The notes under the pieces are model-generated. The model had not been told where the DNA came from. It worked only from the letters and a program-made list of their open reading frames with translations, and did not search any database. From Alphaproteobacteria bacterium (GTDB lineage: Bacteria > Pseudomonadota > Alphaproteobacteria > SHVZ01), in NCBI GenBank assembly GCA_964201945.1, contig CAXNIC010000003.1:1-45071 (forward strand): DNA of 45,071 bases, given 5' to 3'. Positions within the stretch are counted from its first letter, which is position 1; each line of letters begins with the position of its first letter. This document shows, piece after piece, positions 16,695-42,235 of this stretch. Both the position numbers and the translations under genes were made by a program.

Positions 16695-17222
16695 TCAGAC
16701 GTCGCCGCGCGAGATCGCTTCATGGAGCGGCACGGCGGCGTCGACCATCTTTCCTGCGAGCTCCTGAGCCTCCTCGATAGTCAGAGGCTCCCGGAGATTG
16801 TGCAGGCGGTTGGCGATCGGACCGAAGGCTCGGATCACCCCCTCCAAGATTGAGCGTGGAGTAGGGCGAGGCGGGGCGACGACCGGTATCGCGCGGCCCT
16901 TCTCATGGGCAGCGACCAGCGCCTTGAACTCTGGCCTCGCGGCCAACCAGTTGCAGACGAGCCGCACGTTGGTGTCGGTCGTCGGCGCCAGAGCTGTACC
17001 GGGGTCAGACACGAATGCGATGATCTTTGCGGCCGCCTCGTCGTAGTCCGGTCCCGCATGTATCAGCGCAGTATTTGCCAGCATCTCCTCGTTCGGTCGG
17101 GGAGCGAGGTCGAAGCCAGTGGCCGTGGCGATGATGCTGCCGGTGGCATCGTTCGAGTAGACTTTGCCTGGCAGCGTCGGGTCTAGCAACCACGGTCCTT
17201 TGGTGAACTTTGGCAGGGACAT
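16695..17222 (-). CDS. Hypothetical protein, T.GPW...AN..LI family
   Basis: FTKGPW and ANTALIHAGPD. Confidence 0.75.
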   Translation of the reverse strand: MSLPKFTKGPWLLDPTLPGKVYSNDATGSIIATATGFDLAPRPNEEMLANTALIHAGPDYDEAAAKIIAFVSDPGTALAPTTDTNVRLVCNWLAARPEFKALVAAHEKGRAIPVVAPPRPTPRSILEGVIRAFGPIANRLHNLREPLTIEEAQELAGKMVDAAVPLHEAISRGDV

Positions 17223-17230
17223 TTCGTCCT

Positions 17231-17264
17231 CCTCATCAGTTGGAGACCGGCTAGGCCGGTTTCG
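17231..17264 (-). ncRNA. Hammerhead-like element 32
   Basis: Consensus copy; TAG in loop III. Confidence 0.65.
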
Positions 17265-17625
17265 GTGTGGTGAGCCTGGCGCTCTTGAAGAACTCCGCGG
17301 ACTGCTCCGGGATGTCGGAGGTGTCGATCGCCTCGTGCCGCAGCAGCTGCTTGGCGCTGACCCACGCCGTGAGGGCGTCGGCCACCGTCGCCCTTTTGTC
17401 GCCGAGCATGGCCCGGGCAACGGCATCAGACAGGTCATCGCCCGCCTTGAGCAGCTGGGGAGCCGCCATGATCAGGTGAGCGTTCTCGATGTCGGTATCG
17501 GTGATATTGCCACCGCCGCGGGGGAACACCGTCGCGTGCGGCATGTAGCCGACTTCTGCGATGGCGATCGCCTGCTTGGTCAATCGGATCTCCCATGGCA
17601 TGGGCGTGTGATTGACGTCGGGCAT
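17251..17625 (-). CDS. Hypothetical protein, T.GPW...NA.LI.AAP.LL family
   Basis: HTPMPW and ENAHLIMAAPQLL; ends PKPA*. Confidence 0.75.
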   Translation of the reverse strand: MPDVNHTPMPWEIRLTKQAIAIAEVGYMPHATVFPRGGGNITDTDIENAHLIMAAPQLLKAGDDLSDAVARAMLGDKRATVADALTAWVSAKQLLRHEAIDTSDIPEQSAEFFKSARLTTPKPA

Positions 17626-17632
17626 GTCATCT

Positions 17633-17669
17633 CCTCATCAGGTTGAACGACCGGGTCTCCCCGGTTTCG
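17633..17669 (-). ncRNA. Hammerhead-like element 33
   Basis: GAGA (GNRA) loop III. Confidence 0.65.
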
Positions 17670-17670
17670 A

Positions 17671-17883
17671 TCAGGCGATCGCCATCAGGAGCTCCTCGGC
17701 TCCGTAGACGAACGGCCCGCCGCACTTCGCGCAATCGTAGTCGCGCGCGTCCGGCTCGCACCCGTCAGCTTCGGTTCCGCAGCTGGTGCAGAAGCCGACG
17801 TTGTCGAGCCCCTGGTTCGAGCGCTGCACGCCGTCCATGATGACGTCCGGCGTGAGGCTCGCGTGCATAGGCTTGCACAGCAT
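17671..17883 (-). CDS. Small zinc-ribbon protein
   Basis: GFCTSCG...CEPDARDYDCAKCG...VYGAEE. Confidence 0.75.
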   Translation of the reverse strand: MLCKPMHASLTPDVIMDGVQRSNQGLDNVGFCTSCGTEADGCEPDARDYDCAKCGGPFVYGAEELLMAIA

Positions 17884-17894
17884 GGCTGTCTCCT

Positions 17895-17930
17895 AAAAGA
17901 AAAAGGGCCCGATGATCTCTCATCAGGCCC
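17895..17930 (-). terminator. Intrinsic terminator overlapping a hammerhead-like core
   Basis: GGGCCUGAUGA-GAGA-UCAUCGGGCCC followed by UUUUUCUUUU. Confidence 0.8.
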
Positions 17931-17958
17931 TCGGGCAACCGGGTTGACCCCGGTTTCG
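17918..17958 (-). ncRNA. Hammerhead-like element 34 (GUU triplet)
   Basis: CGAAAC CGGG/CCCG GUU GCC-CGAG-GGC CUGAUGAG; GUU still satisfies NUH. Confidence 0.62.
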
Positions 17959-17960
17959 AC

Positions 17961-18437
17961 TTATGCGGCGACGTCCAGCCGCTCGGGCTTGGACATCGAG
18001 CTCGGCTCGATCGTCGCCATCAGGTGGAACTCGACGAAGCGGCTGGGGTCCAGCATGAACCCCGGCCGGTCGAGATCGAGATTGACCAGCCCGGACGACG
18101 CCGGCGGGACTCCGTCGGCGACGCTGAGCGTGATGTGGTACGGCTTGCCGTCCTGCCGGAAGGGCTGTGCGCCCTCGAGCATGACGCCGAGCGAGTCCAC
18201 GCGGTCGTCGACGTGACGGCCGTAGATGGTGACCAGGATGGGCTTCCCCGTCCGGATCTTCTGAGCGATCTCCGCGGGCAGGCCCTGGAGCGCCTCCTCC
18301 CTCGACTTCGCCCCGTAGCCGAGCGTCACATGGAACGCGTGGCCGTTGGGGTGCCGAGGCGGATGGTTCTTCAGGACATGCGCCCGCAGGGTCTGCGGCA
18401 GAACCAGCTTCACGATGAAGGGTCTCTGCTTGCTCAT
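17961..18437 (-). CDS. 2H phosphoesterase family protein
   Basis: Two HxT motifs: FHVTL and YHITL(S...GVPP..S). Confidence 0.75.
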   Translation of the reverse strand: MSKQRPFIVKLVLPQTLRAHVLKNHPPRHPNGHAFHVTLGYGAKSREEALQGLPAEIAQKIRTGKPILVTIYGRHVDDRVDSLGVMLEGAQPFRQDGKPYHITLSVADGVPPASSGLVNLDLDRPGFMLDPSRFVEFHLMATIEPSSMSKPERLDVAA

Positions 18438-18446
18438 GGTGTAGCT

Positions 18447-18496
18447 CCTCATCAGATGCCAGCGGATTGCTGGTCGACCAGCCGAGGCTGGTTTCG
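18447..18496 (-). ncRNA. Hammerhead-like element 35
   Basis: Stem III CAGCC/GGCUG; stem I CCAGC/GCUGG. Confidence 0.67.
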
Positions 18497-18715
18497 TCAG
18501 GACCGTGCAGCCTTGACGAGCTGCACCATCGAGGTGAGCAGAAAGCGCTGCTCCTGCATGATGGCGTCGAGCACGATGTCGCGCACGTCGACCGGGACGA
18601 GCTCGGCGACCATTGACGATTTCGAGAAGGCCTCGTAGGCCCGCTCGCTCTCGGCGAAGCGCTTCGCGTCCAGGCACAGGCCGTTGGTGACATGGCTCGG
18701 CAATGGCTTAGACAT
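18497..18715 (-). CDS. Hypothetical protein
   Basis: 72 aa; TGA abuts CGAAAC. Confidence 0.68.
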   Translation of the reverse strand: MSKPLPSHVTNGLCLDAKRFAESERAYEAFSKSSMVAELVPVDVRDIVLDAIMQEQRFLLTSMVQLVKAARS

Positions 18716-18723
18716 TTCTGTCT

Positions 18724-18760
18724 CCTCATCAGGTTGTTCGACCGGCCGAAGCCGGTTTCG
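18724..18760 (-). ncRNA. Hammerhead-like element 36
   Basis: UUCG loop III; GAACAAC stem I. Confidence 0.65.
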
Positions 18761-19000
18761 TCAGTCGCCCGCGGCCGCTTGGGGAGCAGCCTTCGCGGCG
18801 ATGCGCTTCATGCGGCGCTGGAAGTTGCGGATGAATTGCCTGGTCACGTGGACCTCGCTGTCGAGGTCGTTGACCGCGTAGGCCAGCCGTTTCGTCGGCC
18901 AGCACTTGACCACGGCGGCGCCGGCTCCGGCCAGCCACTCCAGGCGCTGCAGCGTCTTCCGCAGTTCCTCCAGGAGCTGCTGCTCGGTGATTTTTGCCAT
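18761..19000 (-). CDS. Hypothetical protein
   Basis: 79 aa; GGAGG SD. Confidence 0.7.
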   Translation of the reverse strand: MAKITEQQLLEELRKTLQRLEWLAGAGAAVVKCWPTKRLAYAVNDLDSEVHVTRQFIRNFQRRMKRIAAKAAPQAAAGD

Positions 19001-19018
19001 ATTTGTCCTCCGGACGTG

Positions 19019-19053
19019 AAAAGGGCCGCGGTGAGATTATCACCACGGCCCTT
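19019..19053 (-). terminator. Probable intrinsic terminator/hairpin
   Basis: AAGGGCCGUGGUGA-uaauc-UCACCGCGGCCCUU-UU; short U tract. Confidence 0.6.
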
Positions 19054-19071
19054 GTCGGTTGTGCGCCAGGC

Positions 19072-19281
19072 TTAGTCGGCCTGGGCGGTCTCGGTCGGCG
19101 TCTTGGTCATCAGCGCCTTGCCGGCGCTGACCGCCTTGTCGAAGCCGCGCTGGGCGGCCTCGTAACCGCCGCTCGCCTGCACGGCCTTGTGAGCCAGGTA
19201 GGCGGGCGTCGCGACGATGGCGGCCGCGATCTCGGTCCCGTTGGAGGGCTTGAGGGCGGCGGCCAGCTTGTTGAAGTTCAT
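19072..19281 (-). CDS. Hypothetical protein (paralog of 19844..20077)
   Basis: MNFNK start with GGAG SD; LKPSNGTEIAAAIVATPAY. Confidence 0.7.
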   Translation of the reverse strand: MNFNKLAAALKPSNGTEIAAAIVATPAYLAHKAVQASGGYEAAQRGFDKAVSAGKALMTKTPTETAQAD

Positions 19282-19297
19282 GACTGTCTCCAGTTTT

Positions 19298-19373
19298 GAG
19301 AGTTTCGGTCCTTGCCGAGGACCTCGTCGGGCGACGTCTGCATCCGGGATGGATGCTGGCTGTCGCGACTCTC
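19298..19373 (-). ncRNA. Complete type III hammerhead-like fold (U4C core variant)
   Basis: GAGAGU-C-GCGAC[..GCAUCC/GGAUGC..]GUCGC-CCGACGA-GGUCCU-cggca-AGGACC-GAA-ACUCUC; all three stems are 5-6 bp. Confidence 0.75.
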
Positions 19374-19764
19374 TTCCTTTCGCGCGCTCCCTGCCCAGGG
19401 AAGGCAACGCCACGGCTTGCGGCTACCGTGCGCGACCGGCCGCCGAGAGGGCGTGGCGGATCATTTCGTCAATTTCTGACGAGATCTGCCACGAAGTCCT
19501 CGCGGGCTTGGTACTGGCCGGACCGACTGCATCTCGGCGCTTCTCGATCGAGGGTGGGTCTGCCGGAGCCCAAGATCGCGGTGGTCTGCGAAGGTGCTCC
19601 CATCGAAGGGCGCCTCCCGCGTGCGCTTCTGCACGCGGCCCAGGCGGCCGGTCACAATTCTCGATCTAGTCGGGTTTGGTTTCGGCACCTGCCAGGGTGC
19701 CCAAGGCTCGTCTAAGAGCTCGTCAGGCGACTTCGGATCGAGATACTCTGATCCAGGCTGTCAC
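19367..19764 (-). ncRNA. Putative ~398-nt structured ncRNA between two hammerhead-like cleavage sites
   Basis: No convincing ORF; many hairpins (e.g. 19452-19493); bounded by two GUC sites. Confidence 0.5.
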
Positions 19765-19773
19765 GACCGCCCA
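19671..19773 (-). ncRNA. Type III hammerhead-like fold with branched stem II region
   Basis: GGU-C-GUGAC[..GGAUC/GAUCC..]GUCGC-CUGACGA-[GCUC/GAGC]-[GGCACC/GGUGCC]-GAA-ACC; stem I homologous to 19298..19373. Confidence 0.55.
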
Positions 19774-19843
19774 TGTTGACCCTGGGCTGGTATCGTCCGA
19801 CGCTGTTGCGCGCCGGCACCGCCGGTCTGGCGGGTTTCAGCAG

Positions 19844-20077
19844 TCACTCGGCCGGATGCTTGGCATCGTACTCGGCGCGAGCGGCGGACATGCGCCGGTA
19901 GTGTCCGGCGGCGGTGGCGACCACCGCGTAGGCGGGGGGCGCCGCGATCATCGCGGCGACCTGGAGGCCGTTGGCGGGCTTCAGGTCTGCCTTCATCGTC
20001 TCGATCTTCACGTCGACCTTGGAAACGGCCAGGTAGCAGGACGCTTCGCGAGCGATGATGTGCTTGATCGGCTTCAT
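19844..20077 (-). CDS. Hypothetical protein (paralog of 19072..19281)
   Basis: GAGGAG SD; LKPANGLQVAAMIAAPPAY. Confidence 0.7.
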   Translation of the reverse strand: MKPIKHIIAREASCYLAVSKVDVKIETMKADLKPANGLQVAAMIAAPPAYAVVATAAGHYRRMSAARAEYDAKHPAE

Positions 20078-20101
20078 GATTGTCTCCTCGTTGTGGCGGC
20101 C

Positions 20102-20389
20102 TCAGCCGCCGGTTTGCTTGTTCGTCCGCTCCAGGGCCCACCTCATCCGCTTCTCCAGGCTGGGATCGGGGGGGATGCCCTCGATCTCGCCTTTCGAAGC
20201 CTGGTAGACCCCGCGGACCACCGGCATCACCCCGCCTTGCCGATCGGCGAAACCGCCCAGGGGGCCGAGGAACTCTCGGGTCCGGTGTGATTTCGTCATC
20301 TCGGTCAGGACCGTCTTCTCGAAGTCGTTCTTCGCGATCCGGTCAATGCGGGCTAGATGTCGGCGTACTTTCCGTTCCACTTCTGGCAT
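20102..20389 (-). CDS. Hypothetical protein, first gene of the leftward operon
   Basis: 95-aa basic ORF next to the AT-rich region. Confidence 0.65.
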   Translation of the reverse strand: MPEVERKVRRHLARIDRIAKNDFEKTVLTEMTKSHRTREFLGPLGGFADRQGGVMPVVRGVYQASKGEIEGIPPDPSLEKRMRWALERTNKQTGG

Positions 20390-20419
20390 GGGTTGAAGTC
20401 TCCAGGATGTGTGGGGGGA

Positions 20420-20509
20420 GCGTAATCACCCTTGATTACGCACTGTATATATTAGGATTTGTCGCGCTATTTCAAGTAGTTGGCGGTCAAGAATATGAGA
20501 TATTCTTGA
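20420..20509. promoter_or_regulatory. AT-rich divergent control region with two perfect inverted repeats
   Basis: GCGTAATCA-ccct-TGATTACGC (20420-20441) and TCAAGAATAT-gag-ATATTCTTGA (20487-20509). Confidence 0.6.
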
Positions 20510-20668
20510 GTATACAGAGTCATTACTGTCTCTGCGGCGTATTCGCGCACCAATACTGAACGGTATATGTGGTGCATGGTGACAAATTGCCACCGAAATC
20601 TGGTATCTAGCTGTGACTGACCAGTCGACCGCTCGGCAGGCGACGACGCTGGCTCAGGGGGTGGGTGA

Positions 20669-21301
20669 ATGGCAAAGAAGCGGTCCGGACACCGGGCCAG
20701 CAACCACAAGAACGTAGTGATCCAGCTCGTCCGCGACCGGACGACGGGGACGTATGTCGCCGCCAAGGCCAATGACGGCCCGACGCCCGAGCGGATGAAG
20801 AAGCAGGGCGGCTTCCGCAAGGTCCTCCGCGGCGTCTCCCGGTCCGGCGTCGCCATGGCCGAGGGCTATGTCGCGATCGGCGAGAACCCGATCGACTACC
20901 TGGACGAGCGCGGGCTGCTGGGATCAGGGGTGAAGCGCAAGCGCCGCCTCGCCGCCGCCGACTGGGCGCTCCGCATCTACCTGGAGGCCGGCTTCAACCC
21001 CCGCGTCATCATCCGCTATTCCGAGCCGACATCGGGCGGCACCGGCGAGATCTCCGACAGCCGGGCCCGCGCCATGACCAAGTATCGGCGGATGTGGAAG
21101 CAGCTGGTGCTCTCCGACGCCCTCCTCGTGGTGAACACCTGCTGCAAGTACCAGGGCCTGCCCGACAACCGCATCCAGGATCTCTGCGAGGCGCTCGACC
21201 TGGTCGCCCGGTGGCTGCGAATCGAGGGATACATCGCCGGCCGGCTCAAGGCGTGGCTCCCGCCCGGATCGCGGCCGACGTGGGGCGGCGGGAAATCCTA
21301 G
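20669..21301 (+). CDS. DUF6456-like phage protein (possible late regulator)
   Basis: Helical pattern ..RLAAA..AG.. / L.EALD.VA.W; position just upstream of the packaging genes. Confidence 0.5.
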   Translation: MAKKRSGHRASNHKNVVIQLVRDRTTGTYVAAKANDGPTPERMKKQGGFRKVLRGVSRSGVAMAEGYVAIGENPIDYLDERGLLGSGVKRKRRLAAADWALRIYLEAGFNPRVIIRYSEPTSGGTGEISDSRARAMTKYRRMWKQLVLSDALLVVNTCCKYQGLPDNRIQDLCEALDLVARWLRIEGYIAGRLKAWLPPGSRPTWGGGKS

Positions 21302-21323
21302 AGAATCCGCGGGATTGCGCCCC

Positions 21324-21352
21324 TTGACCGCGACACATAATTGCTTGACAAT
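21324..21352 (+). promoter_or_regulatory. Candidate sigma70-type late promoter
   Basis: TTGACC-N17-GACAAT, overlapped by the palindrome TAATTG-cttga-CAATTA. Confidence 0.45.
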
Positions 21353-21537
21353 TACTCCCACGCCCTCCTGCGCCCAAGCGGCATCAGGCGGTGCGCTTTC
21401 CACACCACCAAGCGCGATGTTGTCGCCAGGGCTAGATCTCCTGCCCGGGAGGGATCTCGCGTCTTGCTGTCCTCGCGCCCGCCGGCGACCGGGCCTGGGA
21501 CACTCTCTCGGCTCAGGGCGCCGGGGAAGCGGGCCTC

Positions 21538-21720
21538 ATGGCTGAAATCCTGGACTTCACCGGCGGCCGGCTTTGCGAGGTCTGCGAGCAGCAGATCCCG
21601 CCGAAGCGCTTGGCCGCCGTCCCCGGCACCACCCGCTGCGTCGGCTGTGAAGGGCGCGCGGAGCGCGAGCTCGGGTTCCAGGCAGAGACGATCGACCGGT
21701 CGGTGCGCCGGAATGGCTGA
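21538..21720 (+). CDS. TraR/DksA C4 zinc finger protein
   Basis: CEVCEQQIPPKRLAAVPGTTRCVGC. Confidence 0.85.
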   Translation: MAEILDFTGGRLCEVCEQQIPPKRLAAVPGTTRCVGCEGRAERELGFQAETIDRSVRRNG

Positions 21721-22012
21721 GGTCGTCGCCTTTACGGGCGGCCGCCGCTGCCGCATCTGCTCCGAGCAGATCGGTCATTCTCGGGCCCAGCGCCTGGAGG
21801 CTGTCGAGCAGTTTTACGCGGCTCGGCCCGGCCTCATCGACGCCGAGCGCATGGCCTGCGGCACCGACAACAAGCTGGACAAGGCACGCCAGTGCCAGCG
21901 ATGCCAGGACGCCGACGAGCCGTCGATGGTCCGCTATCTCGGCAGGGCGAACGCCCTGCGGCGCGGTTTTGGGATGTGGCCGGTCATTCCCAGCGATTTT
22001 CCAAGAGGCTGA
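21713..22012 (+). CDS. Divergent TraR/DksA-like zinc finger
   Basis: MAEVVAFTGGRRCRIC..I...RL.AV...CQRC; N-terminus resembles the preceding gene. Confidence 0.6.
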   Translation: MAEVVAFTGGRRCRICSEQIGHSRAQRLEAVEQFYAARPGLIDAERMACGTDNKLDKARQCQRCQDADEPSMVRYLGRANALRRGFGMWPVIPSDFPRG

Positions 22013-22016
22013 GCCC

Positions 22017-22688
22017 ATGGCCAAGGCCAAGGTGAAGCCCACCCCCAATCTCCCGGCCACGATCCTCGCGACCCGGCCGCGGCCTCCTCACCCGATGCTG
22101 GACCCAGCGGCCCCGCCGTTCTTCATGCCCGACAAGGCGCTGGTGAACTGGCTTCGGTCGACCTTCATCGACCCGCAGGGCACGCTCCCGAACCCCGACC
22201 ACGCCCACCTCATGGGGGTGTCGATCGGGGCGCTCTGGACCAACGTCGAGAACACCAAGCGCAACCGCCAGATCCTCGGCACCGCCGAGCTGATCTCCGT
22301 CGGGGGCGACAAATGGACCAAGGGGCGCTTCCTCCAGCAGCTCCGCCAATGGTTCGGGCTGATCCCGACCTTCCTCCTCACCTTCGACGCTCATGCTGCT
22401 GACCACAGCACGGATGCCGAATGGTGCCAGCTGGCCGAACACGAGCTTTATCACTGCGGACCAGAGCTCGATGAGTTCGGCAATCCCAAGTTCGACAAGG
22501 ACGGCTTCCCCTGCTTCGCGATGCGGGGGCACGACGTCGAAGAGTTCACCGGCGTGGTGCGCAGATACGGCGCCCTCCGCCCTGACGTGAAGGCCCTGGT
22601 CGAGGCCGCCAACCAGCCTCGTCCTGACATCGCGCCGGGCCGGATCGCCGCTGCGTGCGGCACCTGCCTCGTGCGCGTCGTCTCCTAG
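22017..22688 (+). CDS. Putative phage metallopeptidase
   Basis: EHELYH (HExxH) and HDVEEF.GVVRRYG. Confidence 0.8.
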   Translation: MAKAKVKPTPNLPATILATRPRPPHPMLDPAAPPFFMPDKALVNWLRSTFIDPQGTLPNPDHAHLMGVSIGALWTNVENTKRNRQILGTAELISVGGDKWTKGRFLQQLRQWFGLIPTFLLTFDAHAADHSTDAEWCQLAEHELYHCGPELDEFGNPKFDKDGFPCFAMRGHDVEEFTGVVRRYGALRPDVKALVEAANQPRPDIAPGRIAAACGTCLVRVVS

Positions 22689-22715
22689 ACGGGGCCGAGA
22701 CGACCGGGGCGTGCC

Positions 22716-23216
22716 ATGGCCAAGCTCAAGGACCACGTAAAGCTGTTCATCGTCGAGCGCTTGGCGTGCTTCGACACTCCGTCCGAGGTGGCCGAGGCTG
22801 TCTTGGAGGAGTTCAAGCTCAAGATTTCTCGCACCCAGGTTGAGGTCTACGACCCCACGAAGGCGGCCGGAGCCGACCTGAGCGAGAAGTGGCGGGTGAT
22901 CTTCGAGACCAGGCGCAAGGCCTTCCGCGAGAACATCGACGACATCCCGATCGCCAACAAGGCGGTCCGTATCCGGATGCTCGGGAAGATGGCCGCGGAC
23001 ACCCGGAGCCCGAAGATGCGCGCCGATCTTCTGTCGCAGGTGGCGAAGGAAGTCGGCGACGCCTTCTCGAACCGGCGCAAGGTCGAGCTGATGGGTGAGA
23101 ACGGTGGGGCGATCATGACCGCCCAGCCCGCGACACTGACGCCTGAGCAGATCGCGGGCATGTCGGTCGCGGAGCTGCAGGCGCACTACCAGGGCCAGGC
23201 CGGCCCCAAGAAGTGA
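22716..23216 (+). CDS. DUF2280 family protein, probable terminase small subunit
   Basis: MAKL...VK.FIV..LACFDTPS.V, YDPTK, IPIANKAVR; directly upstream of TerL. Confidence 0.8.
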   Translation: MAKLKDHVKLFIVERLACFDTPSEVAEAVLEEFKLKISRTQVEVYDPTKAAGADLSEKWRVIFETRRKAFRENIDDIPIANKAVRIRMLGKMAADTRSPKMRADLLSQVAKEVGDAFSNRRKVELMGENGGAIMTAQPATLTPEQIAGMSVAELQAHYQGQAGPKK

Positions 23217-24931
23217 CAGATCTGGCCGCAGGCCCGGCGCCGGCGGCCGCGCCTGACGAAGATCCCGCGGCGAGGGCCGCGCGACTTGCCGCCGAAGCTG
23301 TTGAGGTCGAAAGGGTTGCGGCTGAGGCGCTGCACGCGAGCCTGGTCCGTCGGACCATCCGGCTCCAGGAGTGCAACGCTGACCCGACCCGGCGCGCGAT
23401 CGAGCTCGAGCTGTGCCGGCGCGACCCGGTCTACTGGTTCAACACCTGGTGCTGGACCTACAACCCGAAGAACGCCGGCACCAGTGTCCCGGCCAACCTG
23501 CCCTTCGACCTCTTCCCCCGCCAGGAGGAGATGATCCGCTGGCTTGAGGAGCGCCTTCGCCAGAAGGAAGAGGGGCTGATCGAGAAGAGCCGAGACATCG
23601 GCTTCACCTGGCTGATGGGCGGCTTCGCGCTGCACCACTGGCTGTTCGTCTCGGGCTTCAAGACCGCGTTCGGGTCCAGGAAAGAGGACCTGGTCGACAA
23701 GATCGGCGACCCGGACTCGATCTTCGAGAAGATCCGGATGCTGCTGCGCGGGCTCCCGCACTGGATGCTGCCCGGCGGCTTCAACTGGCGGAAGCACTCC
23801 CACTTCTCCCGCCTGGTCAACCCGATCTCCGGCAACGTGATCACCGGCGAGGCCGGCGACAACATCGGCCGAGGCGGTCGAAACAGCCTCTACGTCATCG
23901 ACGAAGGCGCCTTCCTCGAGCACCCGGACACCGTCGATGTCGCGGTCAACGCGAACGCCGACTGCCGGATCTGGGGCAGCTCGGTCAACGGCATGGGCAA
24001 CCTCTTCGCGAGGAAGCGCCATTCCGGCCGCATCCCGGTCTTCACCTTCCACTGGAAGCACGACCCTCGGAAGACCGAGGCCTGGGCCGAGAAGAAGAAG
24101 CACGAGCTGATCGACGAGTGGAAGTTCGCTTCCGAGTACGATCTCGACTACTCGGCCTCGGTCGAAGGCATCTGCGTCCCGGCGAAGTGGGTCAAGGCCG
24201 CGATCGAGCTCGGCAAGCGGCTCCAGATCGTGCGCTCCAAGGATGGCGTCGGCGGTCTCGACATCGGCGCCGGCAAGGCCAAGTCGGTCTACGTCGAGCG
24301 CTGGGGCCCGATCATCACGATCCCGCAGGCCCGGAAAGACCCGGACACCACCGACACGGCCCTCTGGGCGCTCGAGTGTGCCGAGAAAGGCCACATCGAG
24401 GTCCTCAATTTCGACGCGCCAGGTGTCGGCGCCGGCGTCTCGAGCACGCTGTCGAAGAAGAAGATCCCCGGCTGCAAGACCCAGCCGATCAACACCGGCG
24501 TCCCGCCATCCGACATCACGGTCTGGCCCGACGGACGCAAGAGCTCGGAGACCTTCGCCAACCTCAAGGCCGAGCTCTGGTGGATCATGCGCGAGCGATT
24601 CCGCGCCTGCTTCGAGCACCTGCTCTGGCTGGACGCGAAAGAGGGCGGCAAGGAATACGCTCTCAACGAGCTCACGATCTTCCCTGAGTCGCCGGATCCC
24701 GAGACCCAGGCGCTGCAGGTCCAGCTGTCGACCCCGAAGTGGTTCAGGCGTCACGACGGCAAGATCATCCTGGAGTCGAAGGAGCAGCTGACCAAGCGCG
24801 GCATCTCCTCGCCCGACCACGCCGACGCCCTCGCGCTCACCTTCGTGCCCGAGAAGATCCCGCACCTGATCGGATTCCTCCGAGCAGCTGCCGAGGATCT
24901 CAAGCGGCGCCAAGAGGCCGGGGAAGCCTGA
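23213..24931 (+). CDS. terL: Terminase large subunit
   Basis: Walker A-like EKSRDIGFTW, Walker B YVIDEGAF, nuclease GLDIG, C-terminal ESK...KRG.SSPD.ADA. Confidence 0.92.
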   Translation: MTDLAAGPAPAAAPDEDPAARAARLAAEAVEVERVAAEALHASLVRRTIRLQECNADPTRRAIELELCRRDPVYWFNTWCWTYNPKNAGTSVPANLPFDLFPRQEEMIRWLEERLRQKEEGLIEKSRDIGFTWLMGGFALHHWLFVSGFKTAFGSRKEDLVDKIGDPDSIFEKIRMLLRGLPHWMLPGGFNWRKHSHFSRLVNPISGNVITGEAGDNIGRGGRNSLYVIDEGAFLEHPDTVDVAVNANADCRIWGSSVNGMGNLFARKRHSGRIPVFTFHWKHDPRKTEAWAEKKKHELIDEWKFASEYDLDYSASVEGICVPAKWVKAAIELGKRLQIVRSKDGVGGLDIGAGKAKSVYVERWGPIITIPQARKDPDTTDTALWALECAEKGHIEVLNFDAPGVGAGVSSTLSKKKIPGCKTQPINTGVPPSDITVWPDGRKSSETFANLKAELWWIMRERFRACFEHLLWLDAKEGGKEYALNELTIFPESPDPETQALQVQLSTPKWFRRHDGKIILESKEQLTKRGISSPDHADALALTFVPEKIPHLIGFLRAAAEDLKRRQEAGEA

Positions 24932-24944
24932 CCGGAGGTCATGA

Positions 24945-26870
24945 ATGGCTGACATCCCAGGCACTCGACCGGTCAACCCGACGGCGACCGACCGCGCGCA
25001 GACCCCGGGCGCCAAGATCGAGGCGATCGACCCGGGCCTGATCCGCCGCGCGCTCGCCGGCATGATGTATGCCGTCACCGGCCGGGCGCCCGACTGGTTT
25101 GGCCCTGGCCAGCCGCTGCCTCCGCAGGCGCCGGCGGCCGAGAAGGGTCGCGCGTTCGACTACCCGTACTCGGCCAACACGGTCGTCCGGCCGCGCTCGA
25201 ACGAGCCGGTCACCTTCGACGATCTCCGTGGTTTGGCCGAGCGCTGTGACTTGGTGCGCCTGGCGATCGAGACCCGCAAGGACCAGATCGAGAAGCTCGA
25301 CTGGAAGATCCAGCCGAAGCTCAAGCGGAACGAGAAGATCCGGGGTGAGGCCGACGAGCGCTGCGAGGCGCTGACCAAGTTCTTCCTCTTCCCCGATCGC
25401 CGCCTCGACTGGAACAGCTGGCTGCGGAAGGCGCTCGAGGACCTGTTCGTCATCGACGCGCCGACGTTCTACATGCGCTCGGACCGTTTGGGCCGGCCGT
25501 ACTCGCTCGACATCATCGACGGCGCCACCATTAAGCTCGTGGTCGACCACACCGGCCGACTGCAGGAGCCGCCGGACCCCGCCTATCAGCAGGTGCTGAA
25601 GGGACTCAACGCCACCGACTACACCCAGGACGAGCTGATCTACCGGCCCCGGAACCCCAGGCCGCACAAGTTCTACGGCTTCTCGCCGGTCGAGCAGATC
25701 ATCCTGACGATCAACATCGCGCTCAGGCGATCGCTCTCCCAGCTCAACTACTTCACCGACGGGCTGATGCCCGACCTGCTCATCGGCGTGCCGGAGACCT
25801 GGACGCCGGAGAACATCCGGGAACTGCAGACGTGGTGGGACGCGATGCTCTCGGGCATCGGCGCCAACAAGCGCGGCGCCAAGTTCGTGCCCGGCGGCAT
25901 GCAGCCGTATCCGATCCGCGAGCCGGTGGTGAAGGACGAGCTCGACGAGTGGATCGCCCGCGTCGTCTGCTACGCCTTCAGCCTCCCGCCGCTGCCGTTC
26001 GTCAAGATGATGAACCGCGGCACCGCCGAGACGTCGTTCGAGACCGCGCTGCAGGAGGGCCTCGAGCCCCTGATGCAGTGGGTGAAGGGCACGATCGACA
26101 CCGCGATCCAGAAGTGGTGGGGCTACACCGACCTCGAGTTCGTCTGGGACGACCACACCAAGCTGAAGCCGATGGAGCAGGCCCAGCTGAACTCGACCGA
26201 GATGGCGAGCGGCGTGCTGTCCGTCGACGAGTGGCGGATCGAGAAGGGCAGGGTGCCCTACGGCGTTCCGGCCATGATCAAGGGCATCGGCCCGTCCGGC
26301 TTCGTCTTCGTCGAGGACCTGGCTGACCCCGAGGTTCGGGCAGCTCTGAAGACGGCGCTGATCTCCGCCGCCTCCCCGCCGCCGATGTACGGGCCCGAGG
26401 GGCTGCCGGCCGCGAGTGCCGGCGCCGCGGATCCGCTCGCTGGTATCGACCCGACCCTCCTCGAGAGCGTCGGTCTCCACCCCGAGGTTCTGGCTGCCCA
26501 TGCCGGCGGTCTCCCGGCGCCAGGCAGCGTGCTTCACGGCGTGCCGAAGCCGATCCTCGACCACGTTGACCTTTCACCGGACGAGATCAGCGGTGGGACA
26601 CCATCCCCCGCCGCTGTGGCCGGCCCGGAGGACGGGATCATCGACCCACCGACGCAAAGGGGGGGCGACCCTGCCCTGCCGGCAGACGCTCTCGTCGGTG
26701 TGTCGCCCCGACTCCTCCGGGCCGTTGGCCTCGTCGCCAGGACCTACCCGCTGCCGCGCTTCGACCCCGCCCGCAACCCGCGGCCGACGCCGCTGGAAGA
26801 CCCGGTCGTGCAGGCAGCTCTCCGCCGCCCGCTCCACCGACCGAGCGCGCACCAAGCTCAGACCGACTAG
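24945..26870 (+). CDS. Portal protein with Pro-rich C-terminal extension
   Basis: Follows TerL; YGFSPVEQI, YF.DG..P, IARVVCYAFSLPP motifs. Confidence 0.88.
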   Translation: MADIPGTRPVNPTATDRAQTPGAKIEAIDPGLIRRALAGMMYAVTGRAPDWFGPGQPLPPQAPAAEKGRAFDYPYSANTVVRPRSNEPVTFDDLRGLAERCDLVRLAIETRKDQIEKLDWKIQPKLKRNEKIRGEADERCEALTKFFLFPDRRLDWNSWLRKALEDLFVIDAPTFYMRSDRLGRPYSLDIIDGATIKLVVDHTGRLQEPPDPAYQQVLKGLNATDYTQDELIYRPRNPRPHKFYGFSPVEQIILTINIALRRSLSQLNYFTDGLMPDLLIGVPETWTPENIRELQTWWDAMLSGIGANKRGAKFVPGGMQPYPIREPVVKDELDEWIARVVCYAFSLPPLPFVKMMNRGTAETSFETALQEGLEPLMQWVKGTIDTAIQKWWGYTDLEFVWDDHTKLKPMEQAQLNSTEMASGVLSVDEWRIEKGRVPYGVPAMIKGIGPSGFVFVEDLADPEVRAALKTALISAASPPPMYGPEGLPAASAGAADPLAGIDPTLLESVGLHPEVLAAHAGGLPAPGSVLHGVPKPILDHVDLSPDEISGGTPSPAAVAGPEDGIIDPPTQRGGDPALPADALVGVSPRLLRAVGLVARTYPLPRFDPARNPRPTPLEDPVVQAALRRPLHRPSAHQAQTD

Positions 26871-26927
26871 CCACCGGGGGGACGACCGCCCCGTCAGCCA
26901 CCACCATCCATCTGGAGGATATCCCCC

Positions 26928-27854
26928 ATGACCGTGAAGATGTTTGCTCCGTCCAACCTGCCGATCTTCCGCGCAAGCGACGGCACCCGCTACGACGTCT
27001 CGTCCACCGGCACCATCACCGTCGCCTCCGAGCACGTCGCCGAGGCGCTGAAGGCCGGCTTCGAGATCATGACGGTGACCGGCACGACCGCTCAGCGGCC
27101 GACCGTGGTCCCGACCGGCTATCGCTACTTCGACACGACGCTCGGTCGGACGATCCGCTATGACGGATCCGCCTGGATCGTCGAGCCGGACAGCAACCTG
27201 CTGCTGGACGAGGACTTCCTCGGCCCGGTCGCGGCCTTCGTCACCTCCGCCGGCACCCTGTCGCCGTGGATGTCCAAGATCGTTGGCGCCGCTCCGCCGA
27301 CGGCCGGCGTCATCGCTGGCGCTTCCGGCCTGGCCGGCGGCTGGTGTGCGCTCGCGCAGACCGCCGACAGCCAGAAGCAGGATGCCGTCCTCTACTTCGG
27401 CGACAACCTGGCCTTCTCGCTCGAGGAGCAGCCGGTCATCGAGTTCCGCGCCAAGGTGTCGGTGCTCCCGACCTCGGGCACGAAGCTGTTCATGGGCTTC
27501 GGCAGCGCCTGGGCCGATGGCCCGGATGCGATGACCTACTCGGCCTGGTTCGCGCTCAACGGCAGCGGCGCGGTCCTCTGCGAGACCGACGACGCCGTCA
27601 CCGACAACTCGGTGGCCTCCGGCGTCACGGTGCTCAACACCGAGATCCACACCTATCGGATCGACTTCGCCGATCTGACGTCGATCAAGTTCTACATCGA
27701 CGGCGTCCGGGTCGCGTCGGGCACCACCTTCGCCTTCACGGCGACCGGCGCCAACGCGCTGGTGCAGCCGTTCTTCAACCCCTACAAGGCGACCGGCACC
27801 TCGGTCGGCTCGGTTCAGATCGACAACGTCCGCGTCTGGTCGAACCGCTCGTAA
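26928..27854 (+). CDS. Hypothetical beta-rich (lectin-like) virion protein
   Basis: GGAGG SD; HTYRID...KFYIDGV resembles a ConA/GH16-like fold. Confidence 0.55.
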   Translation: MTVKMFAPSNLPIFRASDGTRYDVSSTGTITVASEHVAEALKAGFEIMTVTGTTAQRPTVVPTGYRYFDTTLGRTIRYDGSAWIVEPDSNLLLDEDFLGPVAAFVTSAGTLSPWMSKIVGAAPPTAGVIAGASGLAGGWCALAQTADSQKQDAVLYFGDNLAFSLEEQPVIEFRAKVSVLPTSGTKLFMGFGSAWADGPDAMTYSAWFALNGSGAVLCETDDAVTDNSVASGVTVLNTEIHTYRIDFADLTSIKFYIDGVRVASGTTFAFTATGANALVQPFFNPYKATGTSVGSVQIDNVRVWSNRS

Positions 27855-27908
27855 GGGATGGCGGGGCGCTGGGAAACTGGCGCCCCACCTCTACCGGTGG
27901 AGCCGACC

Positions 27909-29513
27909 ATGGACCTCAACAGCCTGGTCGGCGCCGCTCTCGCTGGGGCAGGGGTCGCCCTCGCCAAGCGCGCGCACGTCACCTCCGGCGCAGCCCTCGA
28001 TCGCGTGGCTGCAGCCACCAACAAGAACCCGACGCCGAAGCAGGCCGAGACCGGCCTCTACCTGAAGGCGCGCTGCCGCATCCACGGGCTCGACATCGCG
28101 ATCGAGAACGCCAGGGGCTCCTGGCGCCGCAAGTTCAACGCCGACGGCAGCCTGCGCTGGAAGTGCAAGGCGCCGGCGCACTACGGCTACATCGAGCGGA
28201 CTGTCGGCGCCGACGGCGACGCGGTCGACTGCTACATCGGCTCACACCTGAGCTCGCCCAAGGCCTTCGTCATCGACCAGCACTTCAGCAGCGGTGACTT
28301 CGACGAGCACAAGCTGGTGCTGGCGGTCCGGACCGAGGAAGACGCGATCAGGATCTACGATGCGGGCTTCGCCGACGGATCCGGCCCACGTCGCCGGCGC
28401 GCCGTCCGCGAGCTCACCTACCCGGCCCTCAAGGAGTGGCTGGACTCGGGCAAGACCAAGGAGCCGATCGGCGAGGTCCTGCAGAAGGCCGCCGGTGACG
28501 GCCGCCGCAAGACCCTCGACCAGGTGATCGCCGAGGTCGAGAAGTCGGTCGCCAAGCGGGTGGCTGAGACCCTGGCGTGGCTCAAAGGCACGCCTTCGAA
28601 CGACATGGCGGACTCGGCCCAGTATCGGCACGGCGACATCACCGCCGACGCGATGCCCCGGGCCGAGCTCGAGCAGCGCCTCGACCGGGCGGTCAAGCCG
28701 CTCGACCAGGCCTGGATGGGCGGAGGCCGCGACGCCACCCGGATCCCGGAGACGGGCGAAGGGGATAAGCGGGTCGCCTTCCAATTCGATGCCGGCAACC
28801 CGACGGTGCTCGAGGCGCTCGACGGCTACAAGCTGGGCCTGATCCGGGAGATCTCGGACGGCCAGCGCGACACCATCCGGGCCATCGTCAGCGACGGCCT
28901 GGCACGCGGGCTCCCGCCGGCGAAGATGGCCCAGGCCATCCGAGACAGCGTCGGGCTCACCGAGATCCAGGCCGGCCACGTCGCCAGCTACCGGGCCGAG
29001 CTCGAGTCCAGCGACGTCCGGCTGCGCACCAAGGCGCTGACCCGGGCGCTGCGCGATCGCCGCTTCGACCCGACCGTCATCTCGTCGGTCGGCAAGGGGG
29101 AGACGCTCGGCGCCGAGCAGGTCGACAAGATGGTCGACGCCTACCAGCGCCGCTACATCGCGCTCCGGGCCATGACCATCGCCAGGACCGAGGCCCTCAG
29201 GGCCGCGAGCCTGGGCTCCTTCGCCTCGATCGACGCCGCGGCCGCCAGCGGCAACCTCGACAACTTCGAGGTGGTCAAGACCTGGATCGCCACCGGCGAC
29301 GGCAAGACCAGGCCGACGCACTGGGACCTGAACGGCAAGTCGGTGATCGGCCTCGATACCCCGTTCGTCACGGCCGCGGGCGCCAGGCTGCTGCACCCGC
29401 ACGACATCTCGGCGCCGGCGGCTGAGACCATCAACTGCCGCTGCACCCTGAAGTTCAGCTTCCTGCCCAAGCGCAGCAACTCGGGCGAGCCGATCGCTTT
29501 GATCGCGGAGTAG
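27909..29513 (+). CDS. Inorganic-pyrophosphatase-like domain fused to MuF (head morphogenesis) domain
   Basis: N-term YGYI..T.GADGD.VD.YIG...FDEHK; C-term IARTE, TW...D.KTR..H, HP.D...INCRC. Confidence 0.8.
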   Translation: MDLNSLVGAALAGAGVALAKRAHVTSGAALDRVAAATNKNPTPKQAETGLYLKARCRIHGLDIAIENARGSWRRKFNADGSLRWKCKAPAHYGYIERTVGADGDAVDCYIGSHLSSPKAFVIDQHFSSGDFDEHKLVLAVRTEEDAIRIYDAGFADGSGPRRRRAVRELTYPALKEWLDSGKTKEPIGEVLQKAAGDGRRKTLDQVIAEVEKSVAKRVAETLAWLKGTPSNDMADSAQYRHGDITADAMPRAELEQRLDRAVKPLDQAWMGGGRDATRIPETGEGDKRVAFQFDAGNPTVLEALDGYKLGLIREISDGQRDTIRAIVSDGLARGLPPAKMAQAIRDSVGLTEIQAGHVASYRAELESSDVRLRTKALTRALRDRRFDPTVISSVGKGETLGAEQVDKMVDAYQRRYIALRAMTIARTEALRAASLGSFASIDAAAASGNLDNFEVVKTWIATGDGKTRPTHWDLNGKSVIGLDTPFVTAAGARLLHPHDISAPAAETINCRCTLKFSFLPKRSNSGEPIALIAE

Positions 29514-29514
29514 G

Positions 29515-31401
29515 ATGATGATCAACCCCGACGACGACATCTTCCAGAGGATCGCCGACGAGATCGACGGCCAGCCGCCGGCCGGCCAGGCGTTCCAGCT
29601 CATCAAGGTCGCCCACGGGACTCACCCGGAGTTGGCCAAGAAGGATGGTCGAGCTGGCCGGGATGGCGATGGCGACGGCAAGCTGAATGAGAGCGGCTCC
29701 CGATACGCACAGGGTGGCGGCCCGTCGGTCATGAAGGTCAAGACCGAGCTCGGCCACGAAGTCCCGTCGTTCAACCAGCTTGGCACTCTCCGCAGCGAGG
29801 GCAAGCTCTCCGATGCCGACTTCGGCCGGCACACGGCGAACGCGATGAGCGACATCCATACGCGCGCGCATGTCGCCGGGGCCAAGGCCTACAACGCGGC
29901 CAAGAAGCACGACGACTTCACCCCCTACATGGAGCACTACGCGGGCAGCCTGGTCGACTCCCTCAACGGGATCGACGACCCCGTCTATGTCCAGCACATG
30001 GCGGCCAGCTCGGTTCACGCCTCTGAGGGAGAAGCCTGGAAGCACGCCGAGAAGGTCCTCGGCGTCCACAACCGGCGCGTCTCGGCCGGCACGATCGGTG
30101 GCCTGGCCCTCGGTGTCGGCGCCGGCGTTCTCAGCTCGCTGCTGGCGAGCAAGGCCGGCAAGACGCGCCTGGCCAGGGATCTCGCAGAAGCGATGCCGCT
30201 TATGGGCACCGTCGGCGTCACCGCCGGCGCCGTCGGCGGCTGGATGTGGGGCAACCGGGCGGCGAACAAGACGCCGATGCACGAGAAGCCGTCCGCCATG
30301 TATGCCCACGCAGGGGACGTGAAGAAGTTCGATGGTCCGGCCACCTACGACGACCTGAGGAAGGCTGACCAGGACCGGGCCGAGATCGAAGGCTCCCTGC
30401 ACTACGGCTGGAAGGGCGTGAAGGTCGGCCTCCTCCTCAAGTCGGACGACGACACCCTCCTGGCCAAGAAGGACGGTCGGGCGGGGCGTGACGGAGACGG
30501 AGACGGAAAGCTGGACGAAGGTCGGGAGAGCGGAGTCAAGACGGCCGCTAAGATCGGCGGCGAGATCGCCGGCGGCGTGCTCTCGGTCATCGGTGCTGTG
30601 CATGGTGCCAAGATGCTCACCCGCGGCGTCTCTCACGCGGTCAGCCGCTACAGCGCCAACAAGCGGGCGCGCGCTGCCAAGGGCGGCTTCGATGTCGGCC
30701 GTGTGATCGGGCGCATCATCGGCCCTCGTGGGTCCTGGCGCCTCGGCAAGGCTGACGACGGCGAGCTGACCAAGCGGAAGCCGGGCGAGTTCCTCACCGA
30801 GGATCACGGCGACGGCACCAGCACCACCTGGAAGCGTCGCAGTTGGCTCGGCAGCAAGGCCGTCGACGCGGTGACGCCGGGCTTTGTCAACACCAGGCAC
30901 GCCAAGAGCTCGGTGTTGAAGTTTTCCTACCGGTACAAAAAGGTGAAGACCGGCGCCAAGGACACGACCGGCGGCGCGGCGGCGGCCAACGGCATCGCCA
31001 AGGCCGACGACGCCGAGGACCTGCAGAAGTTCCTGCCGATGATCGCCGGCGCCGCGAGGCTTGCCGCGCGCTTCATCCCCAAGGTGATCGGCGCCGGCGG
31101 CAAGGCGATCGAAGCGGCCAGCGGCTTCAAGACCAACGTCCAGGACGGGGCGACTCGGGCCCAGTTCAAGTCCGGCCTGGTCGCAGGCCTGGCGAATAAG
31201 CGCATGCGCGGCGCTGGCGCTGCGGTTCGGGCCTCGGCGCTCGGCCGCGGCTTCACCAAGGCCAAGGCGGTCGCCAACCATCCGGCCACCCAGATCGCGA
31301 CTGCGGCTCCCGCCTTCGCGGGCGGCGGCGGTGGTGCCGGCCGTGACGGCGACGGCGATGGGATTCTAAACGAGCGAGAGCGCCGGCGTACCGGCCTCTA
31401 A
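29515..31401 (+). CDS. Hypothetical head-associated protein with DGDGDG repeats
   Basis: Three (DGR)AGRDGDGDG.L.E motifs; Gly/Ala-rich hydrophobic helices. Confidence 0.75.
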   Translation: MMINPDDDIFQRIADEIDGQPPAGQAFQLIKVAHGTHPELAKKDGRAGRDGDGDGKLNESGSRYAQGGGPSVMKVKTELGHEVPSFNQLGTLRSEGKLSDADFGRHTANAMSDIHTRAHVAGAKAYNAAKKHDDFTPYMEHYAGSLVDSLNGIDDPVYVQHMAASSVHASEGEAWKHAEKVLGVHNRRVSAGTIGGLALGVGAGVLSSLLASKAGKTRLARDLAEAMPLMGTVGVTAGAVGGWMWGNRAANKTPMHEKPSAMYAHAGDVKKFDGPATYDDLRKADQDRAEIEGSLHYGWKGVKVGLLLKSDDDTLLAKKDGRAGRDGDGDGKLDEGRESGVKTAAKIGGEIAGGVLSVIGAVHGAKMLTRGVSHAVSRYSANKRARAAKGGFDVGRVIGRIIGPRGSWRLGKADDGELTKRKPGEFLTEDHGDGTSTTWKRRSWLGSKAVDAVTPGFVNTRHAKSSVLKFSYRYKKVKTGAKDTTGGAAAANGIAKADDAEDLQKFLPMIAGAARLAARFIPKVIGAGGKAIEAASGFKTNVQDGATRAQFKSGLVAGLANKRMRGAGAAVRASALGRGFTKAKAVANHPATQIATAAPAFAGGGGGAGRDGDGDGILNERERRRTGL

Positions 31402-31418
31402 GGACAAGGGGGACGCCG

Positions 31419-41602: not shown

Positions 41603-41874
41603 CCCAGGCCGGCCCCAACCTGCAGGCGGACAACGACATCCGGGCGCTGGCCAGGATCGGCGATCGCCTCCATCGCGCGAGCGAGTACGTCGAGGACATC
41701 CGCTTCCTCAAGAACAAGCTCCAGGCCGTCTCCAGGCAGGTCGGCCCGCTCCAGCGCGTGGCCGACGCTGCCTTCGAGCTCGAGGAGGCGCTGGGCAAGT
41801 CGCCGATGGCGCGCGACGCCAGGCGAAAGCTCGTCGCCGCGATCCTTGCCCTGAAGGGCATCGAGCTCCCGTAA
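41599..41874 (+). CDS. Hypothetical protein
   Basis: ATGA overlap; MTQAGPNL..., 91 aa. Confidence 0.6.
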   Translation: MTQAGPNLQADNDIRALARIGDRLHRASEYVEDIRFLKNKLQAVSRQVGPLQRVADAAFELEEALGKSPMARDARRKLVAAILALKGIELP

Positions 41875-41921
41875 GGCGTCGGCCTGACCCGCCGGCGTCC
41901 TCCCTTCGACCAGGAGACACC

Positions 41922-42221
41922 ATGCAAGTCACCCTGTCCTTCAAGGACGGCCAGACCACGCTTGTCGACAGCGCCACCGGCGAGGACCTGACCAAGAAGT
42001 TCTCGCTCATCGGCATCAAGCTCGATCTCGATAGGGACGGTTGGTTCATGCCGACCATCAAGCTCGAGCTCGGCCTGCATCGGCGGAACATCGGCGACTC
42101 TCTGGCAATCGACGTCCCCGCGGCCTTCGTCACGCTGGATCCGGCTACCGGTAGCCTGAAGGCGGTGAAGCGGATCGAGTTCGCCGACGGCACCTTCGCC
42201 GACATCCCCCAGCCCATCTGA
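41922..42221 (+). CDS. Hypothetical protein
   Basis: AGGAG SD, 99 aa. Confidence 0.65.
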   Translation: MQVTLSFKDGQTTLVDSATGEDLTKKFSLIGIKLDLDRDGWFMPTIKLELGLHRRNIGDSLAIDVPAAFVTLDPATGSLKAVKRIEFADGTFADIPQPI

Positions 42222-42235
42222 CCGAGGAGGTCTCG

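Follow-up and report, generated by a model that had tools for sequence, protein, structure and literature searches.

This locus raises the question of whether a ribozyme-like RNA element that shares a strand with a terminator-like hairpin works as a transcriptional switch, or whether the hairpin is a plain terminator placed over a ribozyme copy. The window studied is a whole phage contig of 45,071 bases (C3), which belongs to a lake-water MAG of 5.0 Mb in 524 contigs. GC3-supported genes span 20389 down to 58 on the minus strand; the plus-strand genes from 20669 on include those for a transposase-like protein (phrog_513), the terminase large subunit, and the portal. Features described below lie on the minus strand unless the plus strand is named. 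Pattern search, Rfam, and folding identified an array of 36 type II hammerhead-like elements (23..18760), most of which sit immediately 5' of a gene's Shine-Dalgarno (SD). The original prediction concerned element 34 (17920..17958; sequence reading, pattern search, and Rfam). It held that the CUGAUGA core and the 3' strand of stem I of this element also form the 5' arm of an 11-bp hairpin followed by a U-run, that the two folds are mutually exclusive, and that the hammerhead-like fold allows read-through into the cassettes behind.

The double use of this strand was read directly in the sequence. The hairpin, T2, is a perfect 11-bp stem-loop (17930-17905; sequence reading and folding) made of GGGCCUGAUGA, the loop GAGA (17919-17916), and the 3' arm UCAUCGGGCCC (17915-17905); in folding the stem extends to 13 bp (17932-17903). 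The 11 pairs comprise 7 G-C, 3 A-U, and 1 G-U, and the folding energy is -20.4 kcal/mol, or -23.3 kcal/mol with the two further pairs. The loop is a GNRA-type tetraloop, and the U-tract UUUUUCUUUU (U5CU4; 17904-17895), with 9 U in 10 positions, stands directly 3' of the hairpin. Intrinsic terminators have a GC-rich stem of about 5-14 bp with a short loop, and T2 has 11-13 bp and a 4-nt loop; the U-rich tract that such terminators carry directly 3' on the transcribed strand is here UUUUUCUUUU. The site lies on the coding strand in a 77-nt intergenic gap, between the stop codon TAA of gene 6 (17963-17961) and the start codon AUG of gene 7 (17883-17881), with the gene 7 SD AGGAGA (17894-17889) directly after the U-tract. 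Gene 7 (17671-17883; ORF call and GC3) encodes a zinc-ribbon-like protein of 70 aa.

The T2 hairpin is both the MFE and the centroid structure of its region (z = -4.1; none of 200 shuffles folds as well), and no other stretch of 10 nt in the contig, on either strand, has 8 T or more, as its U-tract does. T2 ranks first among the 13 sites of a terminator scan of 1-20000, and scans of 20001-40000 and 35000-45071 returned weaker sites only. In a second scan, which covered the whole contig and scored the energy of the hairpin with a lenient rule for the T-tail, it comes second among 63 sites, behind a plus-strand site ending at 45016 that is also terminator-like. Scored in the same way, dinucleotide-shuffled contigs reach -20 kcal/mol or lower in 20 of 40 cases and -23.3 kcal/mol or lower in 5 of 40; likewise, the number of terminator-like sites in 1-20000 is not above that in shuffles (13 vs 12.5). 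These counts are in keeping with a decayed hammerhead copy that lies beside an accidental palindrome and has no role in transcription. Because energy with a lenient tail and site count alone match the shuffles, the case for T2 as a candidate terminator rests on a combination: the perfect stem, the tetraloop, the unique U-run, and the exact sense-strand placement within the 77-nt gap. This combination and the existence of a sister hairpin, described below, leave very little probability for chance.

T2 might instead act after transcription, as a protective stem-loop, an RNase III-type processing site, or a modulator of gene 7 translation whose U-run serves as a ribosome-binding enhancer. The U-run abuts the gene 7 SD, every other array gene has an RNA element rather than a terminator at this place, and stable hairpins arise easily in 66% GC DNA. 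However, a hairpin followed by 9 U in 10 is the classical signature of an intrinsic terminator, and this U-run is the only one of its kind in the contig. A second such hairpin with UUUU lies upstream, and the other high-scoring site, the one ending at 45016 on the plus strand, also resembles a terminator. We regard a post-transcriptional role as unlikely. From its anatomy, we infer that T2 (17932-17895) would act in vivo as a factor-independent terminator.

Whether the hammerhead-like fold could oppose this terminator is foremost a question of folding. The 5' arm of T2 uses all 7 core nucleotides of element 34 together with GGGC of stem I (17930-17927), and the two folds are indeed mutually exclusive. 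As long as the 3' arm has yet to be transcribed, folding predicts stem III together with a 3-bp stem I. For the full element, the terminator state lies at -32.9 kcal/mol vs -15.5 kcal/mol for the hammerhead-like state (-13.0 kcal/mol with a 2-bp stem II). The bias toward the terminator is thus 17-20 kcal/mol over the hammerhead-like secondary structure, as computed by folding programs whose models cover secondary structure and leave tertiary hammerhead contacts and proteins outside. The findpath barrier from the hammerhead-like to the terminator state is 2.4 kcal/mol. Pair probabilities are 0.956-1.0 for every T2 pair and 0.0 for stem I of element 34 in the full transcript; when 240 nt of upstream RNA are added, the T2 pairs remain at 0.96-1.0.

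The time available to the hammerhead would also be brief. Perreault et al. 2011 (PMC3088659) give natural hammerhead cleavage rates of the order of one per minute. The interval from synthesis of the core to synthesis of the 3' arm is about a dozen nucleotides, which would be short against such a rate. Given energies of -15.5 vs -32.9 kcal/mol, the low barrier, and a stem I probability of 0.0, unaided competition of the hammerhead fold with the terminator is implausible under these models. The locus resembles riboswitch and attenuator platforms in that two folds share a strand and a terminator stands ahead of the genes that would be regulated. Unlike those platforms, it has no sensor domain and no competitor of comparable stability: the only local alternative has a 3-bp stem I (-3.2 kcal/mol), and the RNA upstream holds no antiterminator strand complementary to either T2 arm beyond 6 nt.

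A second terminator-like hairpin, T1, occurs with no hammerhead attached. It lies after gene 3, 1.1 kb upstream of T2, and consists of GGGCCGUGGUGA, the loop UAAUC, and UCACCGCGGCCC (19051-19023; -24.2 kcal/mol; sequence reading and folding), followed by UUUUCACG; its UUUU tail was read at 19022-19019. T1 and T2 have in common the sequence GGGCC-[G]UG[G/A]UGA ... UCA[C/U]CG-[C]GGCCC-UUUU. T1 has an additional G-C pair and a different loop, and at one position the two show a compensatory G-C/A-U exchange; the U-G wobble is kept. Among 200,000 composition-matched 12-mers, only 25 came within the edit distance that separates T1 from the T2 arm; for the inner 7-mer alone, 2039 of 200,000 composition-matched sequences were as near. 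A pattern written from the two sites themselves, and thus post hoc and no independent test, matches only T1 and T2 in the window; in the whole MAG it has one further match, which lacks the closing GGCCC arm and the U-run and was read as chance.

On sequence reading, neither GAAAC nor a stem III is present in front of T1. The terminator module therefore exists apart from the hammerhead, which suggests that the overlap at T2 reflects how the site arose, or serves to silence copy 34, and is not a device for sensing. T1 (19051-19019) would be the sister copy of T2. Part of the attenuator claim stands: a terminator-type hairpin with a U-tract lies ahead of the bulk of the array and excludes the fold of element 34. 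The part that gave the hammerhead fold the role of antiterminator is not supported, given the bias of about 17 kcal/mol, the barrier of 2.4 kcal/mol, the 3-bp stem I, the lack of an upstream complement longer than 6 nt, and a T1 that has no hammerhead.

Element 34 itself has the type II core: CUGAUGA, CGAAAC, an A-U pair closing stem III, and U at position 17. Sequence reading places C11.1 and GAAA at 17958-17954, stem III (ACCGGG GUCAA CCCGGU) at 17954-17938, U17 at 17937, the stem I region GCCCGAGGGC at 17936-17927, and the core CUGAUGA at 17926-17920. Stem III has 6 bp (-10.8 kcal/mol), stem II has 2 bp (G-C and A-U), and stem I contributes -3.2 kcal/mol. It is the only one of the 36 copies with GUU in place of GUC and the only one with a 3-bp stem I. 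Its Rfam Hammerhead_II score, 19.7 bits vs a gathering score of 37, is below threshold (E = 8). The pseudoknot between loop I and the 3' tail that Perreault 2011 describes is absent; the tail is the 3' arm of the terminator, and loop I has at most 4 nt. In other copies A9 is about 10 nt from the AUG (e.g. copy 36); relative to these, copy 34 has a 25-nt insert between CUGAUGA and an otherwise typical SD. Copy 34 is the poorest hammerhead of the 36.

Taken with T1, these features suggest that element 34 is a hammerhead copy overwritten by a terminator. Once transcribed, the 3' arm would pair with the whole CUGAUGA core, so that copy 34 could neither fold nor cut, and the terminated immediate-early RNA would therefore keep its 3' hairpin. 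The overlap would be a by-product of terminator installation, since the T1-type arm UGRUGA resembles a hammerhead core, and not a sensor. That all seven core nucleotides serve again in a hairpin arm could nonetheless be more than incidental. We consider it probable that T1 and T2 are plain intrinsic terminators, to judge from their sequences, which close off immediate-early genes 1-6 from the 34 genes behind and leave copy 34 silenced.

The original prediction had also raised antitermination as a role for the whole motif family. The element pattern was CGAAAC, a hairpin, GUH, N3-40, and CUGANGA, with 36 minus-strand matches from 18760 to 23. CTGATGA occurs 35 times in the contig vs 6.2 +/- 2.4 expected (none of 100 shuffles reaches 35), and 32 of these matches lie at 19113 or lower on the minus strand. 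In order and core, the 36 elements agree with type II hammerhead ribozymes. CUGA-GA, GAAA (G12-A14), and A15.1-U16.1, the invariant letters of the core, are kept in 36/36 copies, a conservation that the search pattern itself required. Other positions were left free by the pattern: H17 is C in 35 of 36 copies and U in one; core position 7 varies (U 28, C 3, A 3, G 2); and stem III covaries at pairs 4-6, with pair 5 being G-C in 25 copies, C-G in 10, and A-U in one. These free features behave as a hammerhead allows. G10.1-C11.1 is found in 34/36 copies, and stem II is 2 bp long in 19 copies; 14 copies have a single pair there, one has 3 bp, and two have none.

At the gathering threshold, Rfam gave no match in the whole window; in E-value mode, 23 of 29 sub-threshold rows were Hammerhead_II on the minus strand. 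All copies score below the gathering score of 37, the best at 36.9 bits. Elsewhere in the MAG, the hammerhead search gave one weak match outside the contig (E = 0.83). The array elements are a known kind, the type II hammerhead (RF02276), because their order, core, and stem features match those of published phage type II hammerheads. As far as described in PMC3088659, the likeness extends to the order GAAA, stem III, H17, stem I, CUGANGA, to an open stem II of one or two pairs, and to the many copies flanking single phage genes; Perreault et al. 2011 report stem II of one or two pairs and clusters that flank genes in prophages. According to PMC10085705, bacterial ribozymes associate most strongly with Mu-like phage genes, and the transposase-like gene phrog_513 of this contig is in keeping with that link. 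Unlike the RF02276 hammerheads, every copy here is below the Rfam gathering score, 20 of the 36 have stem I cut to one closing pair around a 3-7-nt loop, and copy 34 is paired into a terminator. The free positions, the covariation of stem III, and the 23/29 Hammerhead_II rows fit a hammerhead, and a general role of the family in antitermination found no support.

The copies that lack a stem I (20/36, within 23-18760) form a group of their own. In these, GUC is joined to CUGAUGA by only 5-9 nt, and the first and last base of this linker can pair in 20/20 (G...C in 13, U...A in 7), leaving one closing pair around the 3-7-nt loop. Each has the invariant core letters at hammerhead spacing, and from their sequences they may be a natural minimal hammerhead variant. 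Searches with the stem-I-less pattern gave 6 matches in IMG/VR (3 ordinary hammerheads with stem I, 1 plausible case at locus L068, and 2 doubtful ones), 10 in metagenomes, and 2 in the genome collection, with none convincing in the latter two sets.

We also asked whether hammerhead cores are paired by a downstream strand in other phages. A pattern of hammerhead core, 3-6 nt, and UCAUCRG had 53 matches in IMG/VR. Of these, 28 proved to be genuine type II hammerheads whose core lies in a 7-bp hairpin, and a U-tract follows none of the 28. A UCAUCAG tail is present in 3 of 160 genuine type II hammerheads whose stem II is GGC/GCC, a sample taken from the IMG/VR matches listed. Core pairing by a downstream strand was thus rejected as a general design (0/28 with a U-tract, 3/160 sampled with the tail); it occurs elsewhere but is rare, and a link to termination was not seen in the IMG/VR sample. 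In the literature searched, no description of a natural hammerhead/terminator overlap was found. As a separate observation, the 28 loci (within L011-L062) come from several phage lineages, and in them a 3-bp stem II is followed at once by UCAUCAG or UCAUCGG, a tail that ViennaRNA folds onto the CUGAUGA core as the 7-bp hairpin. The tail could be a rare built-in off-state or a post-cleavage refold, as far as these predicted folds indicate.

These results bear on whether the locus could be a true attenuator after all, in which a factor or a fast tertiary fold holds the hammerhead of element 34, keeps CUGAUGA from its complement, and lets polymerase read through into the array. The exactness of the overlap (7/7 core nucleotides plus GGGC of stem I), the position at the head of 34 genes with no promoter found behind it, and an inner stem common to T1 and T2 that could be a protein recognition site all speak for it. 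The energetics argue the other way, with 17-20 kcal/mol in favor of the terminator and only 2.4 kcal/mol to be crossed, as do the 3-bp stem I of the weakest hammerhead of the array, the occurrence of the same hairpin without a hammerhead at T1, and the absence of an upstream complement beyond 6 nt. The IMG/VR counts, with no U-tract after any of the 28 core-paired hammerheads and a core-complementary downstream strand in only 3 of the 160 sampled, point in the same direction. An attenuator of this kind seems to us improbable. Slightly less probable still is that a ribozyme scaffold has been co-opted as a transcriptional switch, whether an early protein or a tertiary fold clamps the hammerhead or a protein binds the UGRUGA/UCAYCG inner stem of T1 and T2 and so opens the array; nothing points to a protein that clamps the hammerhead fold of element 34.

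Under the terminator reading, T1 and T2 lie within a leftward early operon that would start near 20490 and run to position 1. Its probable promoter/operator region (20430..20560) was delineated by sequence reading only; it has, at 20491, the single minus-strand CTTGACC near the array. A perfect 8-3-8 palindrome, AAGAATAT-CTC-ATATTCTT (20495-20513; sequence reading), ends where the TTGACC box of the probable promoter begins, and by its sequence it looks like an operator. The order on the minus strand is genes 1 and 2, a 562-nt leader, gene 3, T1, gene 4, hammerhead 36, gene 5, hammerhead 35, gene 6, hammerhead 34 with T2, and then 34 further GC3-supported genes (17883 down to 58). A scan of 1-20000 for sigma-70-like promoters found none, and the phage's own TTGACC-N17-GACAAT motif has no copy on the minus strand. 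All downstream cassettes thus lie behind T2, as had been claimed, and with no promoter-like site downstream of T2 on this strand, expression of the array needs read-through of both T1 and T2. T1 and T2 would set genes 1-6 apart, as a short immediate-early segment, from the 34 genes that follow.

Two side observations concern the plus strand and the array genes. The promoter-like motif CTTGACC-N15-CTTGACAAT has two plus-strand copies, at 21324-21352 and 44939-44967. The strongest hairpin-plus-U site of the contig (44982-45016, plus strand; -25.9 kcal/mol, followed by UUUCCUUG) begins 14 nt after the second copy; by sequence, this arrangement (44939-45016) might mark a very short RNA, or else a terminator of a late operon that awaits antitermination. 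The minus-strand array genes with family matches (402-14235) are of accessory type: DUF5983, DUF3846, DUF932, PAPS-reductase-like, a small methyltransferase domain, DUF6927, DUF6878, and GP88. No replication gene was recognized among them.

Polymerase would pass T1 and T2 either by constant leakage or after becoming termination-resistant, through a phage factor or an RNA element in the 562-nt leader. In lambdoid early operons, the intrinsic terminators tL1 and tR1 are overcome by processive antitermination through N/nut or, in HK022, through put RNA. The present locus is like these in having strong hairpin-plus-U terminators soon after an early promoter and ahead of a long delayed block, with a long untranslated leader upstream. 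The leader (19282..19843; GC3 and folding), between genes 2 and 3, is apparently non-coding, with no GC3-supported frame, and structured (z = -4.39; none of 100 shuffles folds as well); Rfam gave no match to it. GCTCTTA, a heptamer similar to the lambda boxA, occurs once in the window, in this leader (19719-19713), with a 6-bp hairpin (GGCACC-CUGGCA-GGUGCC) behind it. This also resembles the lambdoid arrangement, but the single heptamer match is not significant, as one or more matches turn up in the contig in 70 of 100 shuffles. A further likeness is that gene 1 encodes a small protein (95 aa) with an Arg-rich N terminus.

Unlike the lambdoid operons, the present one has its terminator fused to a ribozyme copy, and neither an antiterminator nor an N, Q, or put homologue was found among the early genes searched for them. 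Family searches matched none of genes 1-5, and the Atlas gave no usable match for gene 1. The boxA-like leader and the Arg-rich protein would be weak leads to an antitermination system, and we infer control of read-through from the layout. Genes 2 (19844-20077) and 3 (19073-19281) share the stretch LKPANGLQVAAMIAAPPAY / LKPSNGTEIAAAIVATPAY and look, by sequence, like paralogues flanking the leader.

The products of genes upstream of T2 had been put forward as read-through factors. The last of these, gene 6 (17961..18437; 158 aa), was examined by motifs, homologues, and a structural model. It has the motifs H36-x-T38 and H101-x-T103; in 36 remote homologues T38 is invariant and T103 is at least 90% conserved. 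PF08302 (tRNA_lig_CPD) is matched by 4 of these 36 and not by gene 6 itself, for which the Atlas feature score was 0.96, to tRNA_lig_CPD clusters. An alignment-based model reached a pLDDT of 93.4. In a Foldseek search of the PDB, every listed row is a 2H enzyme (CPDase, CNPase, Trl1 kinase-CPD, or LigT), with a best E-value of only 2e-3 and a TM of about 0.5. These features agree with the 2H superfamily, which has two H-x-T/S motifs on a duplicated alpha/beta fold. A word-based homologue search returned only gene 6 itself among 41 candidates, sequence searches of the PDB gave nothing relevant, and a single-sequence AlphaFold model was unusable (pLDDT 41.4). Rather than a read-through factor, gene 6 is by prediction a 2H-superfamily cyclic-phosphodiesterase-like protein of the tRNA-ligase CPD type, on the evidence of motifs, model, and Foldseek.

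Hammerhead cleavage leaves 2',3'-cyclic phosphate ends (PMC8782182). The modeled gene 6 enzyme could heal such ends where hammerheads cut, and an immediate-early enzyme of this type fits a phage that really cuts its RNA. An equal alternative is a role in anti-defence, in which the enzyme would degrade cyclic-nucleotide immune signals.

Searches for relatives covered phage records, IMG/VR, and the genomes of the order. The nearest cultured phages by portal protein are the Brevundimonas phages Polewnik and Strzyga, with 46% identity; Polewnik has no Hammerhead_II match at E <= 1. Phage records gave no match to the region by megablast and blastn, and genes 6 and 8 have no relative in IMG/VR. A TerL search of IMG/VR returned 2 distant loci; neither extends more than about 1.2 kb beyond the TerL match on its 5' side, and the early region is therefore not covered by them. 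The exact 22-mer of the commonest element copy had 0 matches. A DNA search that covered the 12 genomes of the order, with G000 among them, gave outside G000 itself two short weak matches, neither of them a hammerhead. In none of these three sources was a related phage found for the array and T2 region.

If T1 and T2 work as read here, the phage uses the classical logic of early terminators and read-through before an unusually large ribozyme array, and the two sites would offer an easy way to study the timing of transcription in such arrays. The overlap, as it appears in the sequence, would be one natural way to switch off a hammerhead copy, through pairing of its core by a downstream strand. 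The wider locus is of more value for bench work: the 20 nearly stem-I-less copies, the immediate-early cyclic-phosphodiesterase-like gene, and the structured 562-nt leader could help to test what phage ribozyme arrays are for.
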